40,697 nt of DNA, from the IMG/VR virus record IMGVR_UViG_2541047891_000003. One strand, given 5' to 3'. Position numbers and translations under genes: made by a program. Positions 16,052-16,361 of the stretch are shown one piece after another (positions within the stretch are counted from its first letter, which is position 1; every line of letters begins with the position of its first letter). The notes below the pieces were generated by a model. It saw only the letters and a program-made list of their open reading frames with translations. It was not told the origin of the DNA and searched no databases. The DNA comes from a virus. Lineage: Duplodnaviria; Heunggongvirae; Uroviricota; Caudoviricetes.

Positions 16052-16127
16052 GGCCCTTTAGCTCAGTGGTGAGAGCGAGCGACTCATAATCGCCAGGTCG
16101 CTGGTTCAAATCCAGCAAGGGCCACCA
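16052..16127 (+). tRNA. ileZ: tRNA-Ile2 (anticodon CAU, lysidine type; could alternatively be tRNA-Met)
   Basis: Cloverleaf with acceptor GGCCCTT/AAGGGCC, anticodon loop CTCATAA, T-loop TTCAAAT, CCA end; close to E. coli ileX as I recall it. Confidence 0.8.
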
Positions 16128-16128
16128 A

Positions 16129-16205
16129 CCGCCACTAGCTCATCAGGAAAGAGCGTCAACCCTTTAAGTTGAGAGTGCGAGGTTCGAGTCCCCGGTGGCG
16201 GTCCA
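16129..16205 (+). tRNA. tRNA with atypical anticodon loop CCTTTAA (anticodon UUU = Lys if canonical; C at position 33)
   Basis: Acceptor CCGCCAC/GTGGCGG, D-arm GCTC..GAGC, anticodon stem TCAAC/GTTGA, T-loop TTCGAGT, CCA end; identity uncertain. Confidence 0.6.
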
Positions 16206-16207
16206 GT

Positions 16208-16283
16208 GCCGACTTAGCTCAGTAGGTAGAGCAACTGACTTGTAATCAGTAGGTCACCAGTTCGATTCCGGTAGTCGGCACCA
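16208..16283 (+). tRNA. tRNA-Thr (anticodon UGU)
   Basis: Acceptor GCCGACT/AGTCGGC, anticodon stem ACTGA/TCAGT with loop CTTGTAA, T-loop TTCGATT, CCA end. Confidence 0.8.
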
Positions 16284-16286
16284 TAT

Positions 16287-16361
16287 GCGGGTATCGTATA
16301 ATGGCTATTACCTCAGCCTTCCAAGCTGATGATGCGGGTTCGATTCCCGCTGCCCGCTCCA
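16287..16361 (+). tRNA. tRNA-Gly (anticodon UCC), glyT-like
   Basis: GCGGGTATCGTATAATGGCTATTACCTCAGCCTTCCAAGCTGATGATGCGGGTTCGATTCCCGCTGCCCGCTCCA, near-identical to E. coli glyT as I recall it. Confidence 0.85.

Follow-up and report, generated by a model that had tools for sequence, protein, structure and literature searches.

An argN-family tRNA with a UUU anticodon and a cytidine at position 33 in the late-region tRNA array of a lambdoid Escherichia coli prophage

The DNA analysed here (the window; all 40,697 nucleotides of IMG/VR virus record IMGVR_UViG_2541047891_000003) is a lambdoid (lambda-like) Escherichia coli prophage, and it carries four tandem tRNA genes on the + strand, the second of which, tRNA2, has an atypical anticodon loop and is the main subject of this report. 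These four genes are all of the ARAGORN calls in the 40.7-kb window:

16052..16127, + strand: tRNA1, an ileZ-type tRNA-Ile2, anticodon CAU (ARAGORN CAT); Rfam 72.5 bits; CCA encoded; AUA is read after lysidine modification
16129..16205, + strand: tRNA2, argN family, anticodon UUU (ARAGORN TTT, called Lys(ttt)); Rfam 45.1 bits, the lowest of the four; CCA encoded
16208..16283, + strand: tRNA3, a tRNA-Thr(UGU) (ARAGORN TGT), an exact copy of host thrU (76/76 identical to K-12 thrU); Rfam 73.8 bits
16287..16361, + strand: tRNA4, a tRNA-Gly(UCC) (ARAGORN TCC), a near-exact copy of host glyT (74/75 identical to K-12 glyT); Rfam 63.4 bits

A reading made earlier from the letters of the window (below, the sequence-only reading) had described this cluster as tandem Ile2(CAU), UUU, Thr(UGU) and Gly(UCC) tRNAs at 16052-16361, and so it proved: ARAGORN returns exactly these boundaries, and Rfam RF00005, which has a gathering score of 29 bits, matches all four genes with E-values of 1e-6 to 2e-14. 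The spacers tRNA1-2, 2-3 and 3-4 measure 1, 2 and 3 nt, respectively. The 601-bp array region is found at 99.3% identity in E. coli IHE3034 and 35 further complete genomes, in which the Prokaryotic Genome Annotation Pipeline (PGAP) names the genes tRNA-Ile, tRNA-Lys, tRNA-Thr and tRNA-Gly, none of them as a pseudogene.

The anticodon stem of tRNA2 is formed by positions 16156-16160 and 16168-16172 (UCAAC/GUUGA) and encloses a 7-nt loop at 16161-16167, C32 C33 U34 U35 U36 A37 A38, with the anticodon at 16163-16165 and C33 at 16162. The loop CCTTTAA with C33, as given in the sequence-only reading, is read directly from these positions, and the ARAGORN anticodon agrees with it. The register of the loop is set by the five Watson-Crick pairs of the stem, which leaves no shifted anticodon reading for tRNA2; a shifted anticodon UUA, which would make it an ochre suppressor, is excluded because the 5-bp stem sets the 7-nt loop. 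U8, A14, G18G19, the purine at position 37, the T-loop UUCGAGU and the 3' CCA are all intact. The molecule lacks the canonical U33, but it scores above the RF00005 gathering level as a cloverleaf (45.1 versus 29 bits). With respect to pseudo-tRNA features, it is called by ARAGORN, Infernal and PGAP, and besides C33 it carries one mismatch, A51.C63 in the T stem (16180/16192), which is also present in the Arg(UCG) argN allele of Nil2; the PPompW and var2 alleles, by contrast, have no PGAP annotation. The cloverleaf of the window tRNA2 lies 3 kcal/mol above the minimum free energy (MFE), inside the range of genuine tRNAs; MFE folding was uninformative as a test, given that genuine thrU also misses the cloverleaf, and cloverleaf energies were compared instead.

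The body to which this UUU anticodon is attached is not that of a lysine tRNA. Only 46 of the 77 positions of tRNA2 are identical to host lysT, whereas identity to argN of phages 933W and Nil2 reaches 79-83%, and that argN follows ileZ immediately, downstream of Q, just as tRNA2 does; the alignment to ileZ-argN covers Nil2, 933W and PPompW. The base A20, an arginine identity element, is retained while C35 has been lost, the anticodon being UUU in place of an Arg anticodon (UCG, or UCU in some members). U34, U35 and U36 form the main identity set of lysyl-tRNA synthetase (LysRS), and tRNA2 possesses all three. Covariation among 16 distinct argN-family members supports the shared fold: 97.3% of cells are paired, six pairs show double compensatory changes, none of 500 shuffles matches the observed values, and slid controls are only 29-53% paired. 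An 8-bp acceptor stem through N-1/N73 pairing was also considered and rejected, as it shows no covariation, N-1 being mostly A whether the discriminator is U, C or G. The fetched loci contain 136 distinct tRNAs, and in these a base other than U at position 33 occurs only in the argN family, save for one spurious ARAGORN call in T5. By sequence comparison, tRNA2 is a prophage member of the argN family in which the anticodon has moved from Arg (UCG/UCU) to UUU and U33 has changed to C.

Members of the argN family occur in 2131 of 5426 complete E. coli genomes, and their anticodon loops fall into several types:

CUUCGAA: Arg UCG, in 933W and Nil2
CUUCUAA: Arg UCU, in BH100, a plasmid, and an Ile2-Arg(UCU)-Thr-Gly array in 14 viral loci
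CUUUUAU: UUU with canonical U33, the type of strain 8178
CUUUUUAU: an 8-nt loop, in rodent E. coli
CCUUUAA: UUU with C33, the window type

The window type has its anticodon stem, D-loop and variable loop in common with the Arg(UCU) and 8178 types. The simplest history suggested by these alleles would run from Arg(UCU), through a change of C35 to U that creates UUU, to the change of U33 to C, and the Ile2-Arg(UCU)-Thr-Gly array of the 14 loci is the likely ancestor of the window array.

Several further observations concern the wider family. The 8-nt loop alleles CUUUUUAU, for which ARAGORN gives the anticodon 'tttt', are those of E. coli M18 (L134:601-678), PG20180057 (L135:601-678) and A39 (L136:601-677), and two of the three are still named tRNA-Lys by PGAP. 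An 8-nt anticodon loop is the architecture of the classical +1 frameshift-suppressor tRNAs, which is matched by these sister alleles from rodent E. coli but not by the 7-nt loop of the window tRNA2. More distant members have the loops CAUUGCC (A33, C37), ACAUAUU and CAUUUAA (A33, no CCA), the loci concerned being Yersinia phage YeP2 (L141:501-578), IMG/VR locus L182, and L179 and relatives. Canonical argN alleles are highly polymorphic, with mismatched stems even in common alleles, and an acceptor pair G3.U70 is present in Nil2 argN (L002:1578-1654) and in the PPompW allele (L003:1578-1653). G3.U70 is the major identity pair for alanyl-tRNA synthetase, and mischarging of these two alleles with alanine is conceivable from their sequences. 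Within a set of 82 ileZ-argO loci sampled via ileZ alone (IMG/VR loci L220-L320), those argN-slot elements that ARAGORN leaves uncalled have scrambled anticodon and T arms; an example is the 100-nt ileZ-argO interval TCACAAACCGCCATTAGCTTATCAGGAAGAGCAGACGACACG...

The other three tRNAs are of different provenance. tRNA1 has 100% identity to the copies that PGAP names tRNA-Ile in O157:H7 prophages, aligns base for base with Nil2 ileZ, and is found at an identity of at least 99% in 2730 E. coli records, every one of which is named tRNA-Ile. The sole difference between tRNA4 and K-12 glyT is C6 to U, which produces a U.G wobble. In comparison with K-12, neither host tyrU, its 116-nt spacer nor host-like flanks were found around the prophage thrU and glyT copies, and their likeness to the host is confined to the mature tRNA sequences, which suggests that they may have arisen by gene conversion limited to the tRNAs or by capture of processed tRNAs. 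The Thr-Gly pair is a separate module, and 49 of 165 viral loci have it but no ileZ; in these, the lone pairs are preceded by a conserved element, GGTTCYGAGGGG...GAGGAACC. What the sequence-only reading had missed, judging from these comparisons, is that tRNA3 and tRNA4 are host copies, that tRNA1 is an ileZ tRNA, and that tRNA2 is an anticodon-shifted argN.

The array is flanked by the following features of the prophage:

14149..14970, + strand: antiterminator Q gene (Pfam PF03589 Antiterm, E=2e-50; the IHE3034 homologue is an 'antitermination protein' in PGAP)
15051..15070, + strand: tR'-like intrinsic terminator just past Q, with a 7-bp stem of which 5 pairs are GC, followed by the T-run TTTTATATCT (terminator scan)
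15210..15929, + strand: low-GC open reading frame (ORF) of 239 aa between Q and the tRNAs, termed a 'moron' in the sequence-only reading
16363-16419 and 16421-16492, + strand: two long hairpins between tRNA4 and the holin gene
16653..16868, + strand: holin, which opens the lysis cassette (Pfam PF04971)
16868-17365, + strand: lysozyme (Pfam PF00959)
17350-17829, + strand: Rz (Pfam PF03245)

RusA is also encoded upstream of the array, while HNH and terminase genes lie downstream, past the lysis genes. The position of the terminator matches the annotated tR' of Nil2 and 933W, and, with Q upstream, the four tRNA genes belong to the late (pR') transcription unit. The array does indeed sit between the 'moron' ORF and the lysis genes, as had been stated. 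This ORF has a GC fraction of 0.396, against 0.50 across the window ORFs; a Pfam search assigned it to no family, and PGAP labels it 'hypothetical protein' or 'STM1630 family protein'. AUA (21 per 1000 codons) and GGA (34 per 1000) are very frequent in it, as are AGA and AGG. The hairpin region 16362-16500 folds at -48.7 kcal/mol (z=-5.1), and 0 of 200 shuffles are as stable; the terminator scan passes over the hairpins at 16363-16492, which lack a T-run, and no Rfam family matches them either. Processing, attenuation or termination signals are possible functions. Rfam additionally reports two RNAs in the early region of the prophage, a DicF small RNA at 5077-5128 (- strand, 76.7 bits) and a hok/sok-type sok antitoxin RNA at 11567-11740 (+ strand, 98.2 bits).

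This slot corresponds to the site at which Shiga toxin (Stx) phages carry ileZ-argN-argO and stx. As in the clusters of 933W and Nil2, the array lies between Q and the late and lysis genes and includes an identical ileZ, and tRNA2 has the C1-G72 acceptor stem, the D-loop and the T-arm in common with their argN. The two arrangements differ in that argN of these phages has UCG with U33, whereas tRNA2 has UUU with C33; moreover, argO is replaced here by the thrU and glyT copies, and no stx genes follow. The array is modular, and the late region of this lambdoid prophage in which it lies depends on Q. Our literature searches found no description of a C33 prophage tRNA and nothing on the ileZ tRNA with Shiga, and the matches to argN/argO were all unrelated.

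The sequence-only reading had proposed that all four tRNAs decode codons favoured by the AT-rich moron and fibre genes. We compared the prophage ORFs with 37 host core genes, and this argument holds for three of the four: the odds ratios (ORs) are 3.7 for AUA, 2.7 for ACA and 2.3 for GGA. For AAA it fails, with an OR of 1.14 over all ORFs and 1.05 (p=0.56) in late genes, although values of 1.35 in early genes and 1.41 (p=0.009) in the tail-fibre region were recorded. Nor is the match special to the moron or fibre genes, as the enrichment of AUA, ACA and GGA is prophage-wide. Of the lysine codons, AAA is the one that the host mainly uses (34 per 1000 codons), and the host has at least five lys genes to read it. 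The most enriched rare codons, AGA (OR 7.3) and AGG (OR 9.4), have no cognate tRNA in the array. Codon supply is hence a reasonable account of tRNA1, tRNA3 and tRNA4, but not of tRNA2, since AAA lacks enrichment and is the codon with which the host already encodes most of its lysine.

The C33 allele is neither a private mutation nor a one-off defect. C33-UUU-AA is invariant across 118 viral loci, in which position 32 varies (C, U or A), and the allele is the best family match, at an identity of at least 95%, in at least 587 E. coli records; its U33 sister allele is found in ~20 E. coli records, making the C33 allele ~30 times commoner. It adjoins 47 different upstream haplotypes and is present in the isolated phages PhiR47_1, 606R7, 689R5 and Evi. 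A scan of one genome per species for an exact T-arm/acceptor 22-mer gave matches only in E. coli and Shigella flexneri. The suggestion that tRNA2 might be the integration target of another element was not borne out: nothing is inserted between tRNA2 and its neighbours, from which it is separated by 1 and 2 nt, and more than 100 loci show the array unbroken.

Constraint on tRNA2 was gauged from 60 loci with a common downstream region; as the first locus set was biased by an exact 22-nt seed in tRNA2, the sampling was redone with Thr-Gly-junction and ileZ seeds. Nucleotide diversity is 0.014 for tRNA2, 0.005 for tRNA3, 0.004 for tRNA4, 0.016 for the adjacent intergenic DNA and 0.040 for holin 4-fold sites. 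Segregating sites number 10 of 77 in tRNA2 versus 11 of 35 among the holin 4-fold sites (p=0.035), with no difference from tRNA3 and tRNA4 combined (p=0.24), and pairing is kept in 7 of the 10 distinct stem substitutions in tRNA2 (p=0.02). The constraint on tRNA2 is only moderate.

The UUU anticodon of tRNA2 is that of the host tRNA which is targeted by PARIS AriB and by PrrC/RloC and which is also a substrate of P2-Old, and the determinants of these nucleases can be compared with its sequence. AriB cuts tRNA-Lys at U36AAUC|A41, and its cleavage is abolished by U39A, inhibited by A41C and impaired by U16C (PMC12409363). The tRNA-Lys of phage T5 escapes AriB and rescues infection (PMC12409363); this resistant tRNA has C16, A39-C40-C41 and a canonical CUUUUAA loop. 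Cells, too, are rescued by phage tRNA-Lys, both from AriB and from PrrC170. In tRNA2, sequence comparison finds C16 and G39-U40-U41 where AriB requires U16 and U39-C40|A41. P2-Old acts on the anticodon stem, cutting after C where CNG motifs are paired, and needs CNG at 28-30 and 40-42; it prefers thrU and also nicks tRNA-Lys, and host thrU is not protective (PMC12445682). tRNA2 has no CNG on either strand of its anticodon stem, which reads CAA at 28-30 and UUG at 40-42. PrrC cuts 3' of U33, as does RloC (PMC2610378), and at this scissile nucleotide tRNA2 has a C; phages are rescued from PrrC170 by phage tRNA-Lys (PMC11555353). Bacterial synthesis of t6A37 requires 36-UAA-38, and the enzyme makes no base-specific contact with U33 (PMC13276492); this strict determinant is retained in tRNA2 as U36-A37-A38. 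The possibility that the array acts against P2-Old through its tRNA-Thr was also considered and is excluded, as tRNA3 is host thrU with CNG kept, and host thrU is unprotective; being identical to the sensitive host tRNA, tRNA3 cannot be an evasion variant.

Our preferred, if tentative, reading of these comparisons is that tRNA2 may be an anticodon-shifted argN paralogue which is matured from the late transcript, charged by LysRS and insensitive to nucleases, in other words a spare tRNA-Lys in which C33 would be either tolerated or a source of added protection. On this reading the four tRNAs would be co-transcribed and separated by RNase P and 3' trimming. tRNA1, tRNA3 and tRNA4 would add capacity for AUA, ACA and GGA, codons that the host seldom uses and that are enriched 2-4 times in the phage. 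tRNA2 would be charged by LysRS via U34-U35-U36, would carry t6A37 and would read AAA and AAG, probably less efficiently owing to C33. It would be kept not for codon supply but as a lysine tRNA with a foreign body, which should be spared by the anti-phage nucleases that the host directs at tRNA-Lys.

There are partial precedents for such a molecule. In a laboratory case of tRNA gene recruitment ascribed to Saks, Sampson and Abelson in 1998, tRNA-Arg(UCU) was reportedly turned into tRNA-Thr(UGU) by a single anticodon change. tRNA2 resembles that case in its Arg(UCU)-type body and in gaining a new identity, as predicted, through one anticodon change; it would differ in being a natural Arg to Lys switch on a prophage, with U33C in addition, and in that its change of charging is a prediction. 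The PARIS-neutralising tRNA-Lys(UUU) of T5 (PMC11464382, PMC12409363) is likewise phage-encoded, carries the anticodon of the nuclease target and departs from host tRNA-Lys at the AriB determinants (C16; 39-41). The T5 molecule, however, is a true tRNA-Lys homologue with a CUUUUAA loop and A73, and its resistance and decoding have been shown experimentally, whereas tRNA2 has an Arg-family body, C33 and U73, belongs to a temperate phage and is known from sequence. Candida tRNA-Ser(CAG) is reported to have G33 (Santos et al. 1996, cited in PMC3664417), and there the non-U33 is thought to damp decoding. It is another natural tRNA with a changed decoding identity and without U33; it differs in being eukaryotic, in having G33 rather than C33, and in its tie to a codon reassignment, a kind of change that is not implied here.

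A number of points weigh against the spare-tRNA reading. The discriminator of tRNA2 is U73 (16202) and its first pair C1-G72, as opposed to A73 and G1-C72 in tRNA-Lys, and its T stem contains the A51.C63 mismatch. Nearly all tRNAs have U33, and translational efficiency is reported to fall markedly when this base is mutated (PMC3664417, PMC13276492). Since T5 tRNA-Lys is resistant with a U33 loop, C33 is not required for PARIS evasion, and any Arg-derived body would be without the AriB and Old determinants by accident; the neighbouring tRNA3, a copy of host thrU, offers no protection from P2-Old. tRNA2 is as diverse as the intergenic DNA beside it and 3 times as diverse as tRNA3 and tRNA4. U8C or the loss of 1 nt from the D stem is seen in ~30% of C33 loci, and PGAP leaves those alleles unannotated. 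Elsewhere, slot 2 has degenerated repeatedly, giving 6-nt, 8-nt, A33 and C37 loops, and in 24 of the 82 ileZ-argO loci the argN slot holds a ~77-nt element with acceptor stem and CCA intact and no ARAGORN call.

Much of this is what would be expected if tRNA2 were instead a non-decoding relic or processing spacer, a serious possibility that we nevertheless place second. Here the function of argN would have been lost via loop mutations, and RNase P cuts at the 5' ends of tRNA2 and tRNA3 would still mature the ends of their neighbours, or there may simply have been too little time for decay. The slot-2 loops CCAGGU (6 nt), CUUUUUAU, CAUUUAA, CAUUGCC and ACAUAUU occur with acceptor, T and D arms persisting; the uncallable elements of the ileZ-argO loci, a 66-nt argN remnant in Stx2c phages, the intergenic level of diversity, the damaged C33 alleles, the lowest Rfam score of the four and spacers of just 1, 2 and 3 nt all agree with a spacer. 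Against it stands the anticodon arm itself, which is fully paired and, bar one singleton, invariant in the C33 clade even though RNase P has no need of it, and whose loop retains a sense anticodon, A37 and A38. The scarcity of segregating sites relative to 4-fold sites, the stem changes that favour pairing and the ~30-fold excess of the C33 allele over its U33 sister also speak for something more than a relic. A bolder version of the spare-tRNA reading, which we regard as rather doubtful, would take slot 2 to be an evolvable 'anticodon cassette' in which an Arg body was recruited to a Lys anticodon, yielding a tRNA-Lys hidden from the Toprim nucleases PARIS AriB and P2-Old; the change of U33 to C would then be adaptive, removing the scissile uridine of PrrC/RloC while keeping the anticodon and t6A37.

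The original codon idea, in which tRNA2 is a plain supplementary tRNA-Lys that only boosts lysine decoding in late expression, gains from the fit of its three neighbours to codon supply and from the mild AAA enrichment in early genes and the tail-fibre region, but we consider it clearly unlikely: late genes show no such enrichment, the host already devotes at least five genes to this major codon, a tRNA with C33 and U73 should decode worse than the host's, and the switch from Arg to Lys would have left AGA and AGG, which are 7-9 times enriched, unserved. It is very improbable that the altered loop tunes the -1 frameshift for the tail chaperone G-T fusion, with the 8-nt-loop relatives as +1 suppressors. 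The window does have a slippery heptamer, A AAA AAG, at 26549-26555 directly ahead of the G stop codon (G ORF 26172-26558), with the -1 frame open into a T-frame ORF at 26570-26860; tRNA-Lys(UUU), the nominal specificity of tRNA2, reads both slippery codons, and 8-nt-loop (UUUU) alleles are known in rodent E. coli. Many phages without tRNA genes, however, use this heptamer with the host tRNA, and the loop of the window tRNA2 has 7 nt. A role outside translation, as a decoy that binds and ties up a nuclease directed at tRNA-Lys, or some other host factor that binds tRNA, seems just as remote. Six of the seven loop positions mimic host tRNA-Lys, and the AriB study raised overexpressed viral tRNAs as possible competitive inhibitors (PMC12409363); yet AriB needs U16 and U39-A41, which are absent from tRNA2 and make binding unlikely, and phage tRNA-Thr did not shield host tRNA from P2-Old by competition (PMC12445682).

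Phage tRNAs are increasingly reinterpreted as tools of counter-defence, and the evidence comes nearly all from virulent phages (T5, T4). tRNA2 is the tRNA of a temperate phage in hundreds of E. coli genomes, with an Arg to Lys anticodon switch and loss of U33, and it adjoins a copy of tRNA-Thr(UGU), the second main target of PARIS. If it is a relic, it would be a clean example of a tRNA body retained only as a processing unit. If tRNA2 decodes, U33 would be dispensable in vivo in a bacterial elongator tRNA, the name 'tRNA-Lys' given by annotation pipelines would rest on the anticodon alone, and prophage tRNA arrays would join the conflict among phages, satellites and defence islands. Furthermore, should the change of U33 to C prove adaptive, it would be the first instance in nature of an anticodon nuclease being evaded through mutation of the near-universal U33, and about a tenth of sequenced E. 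coli would carry it.

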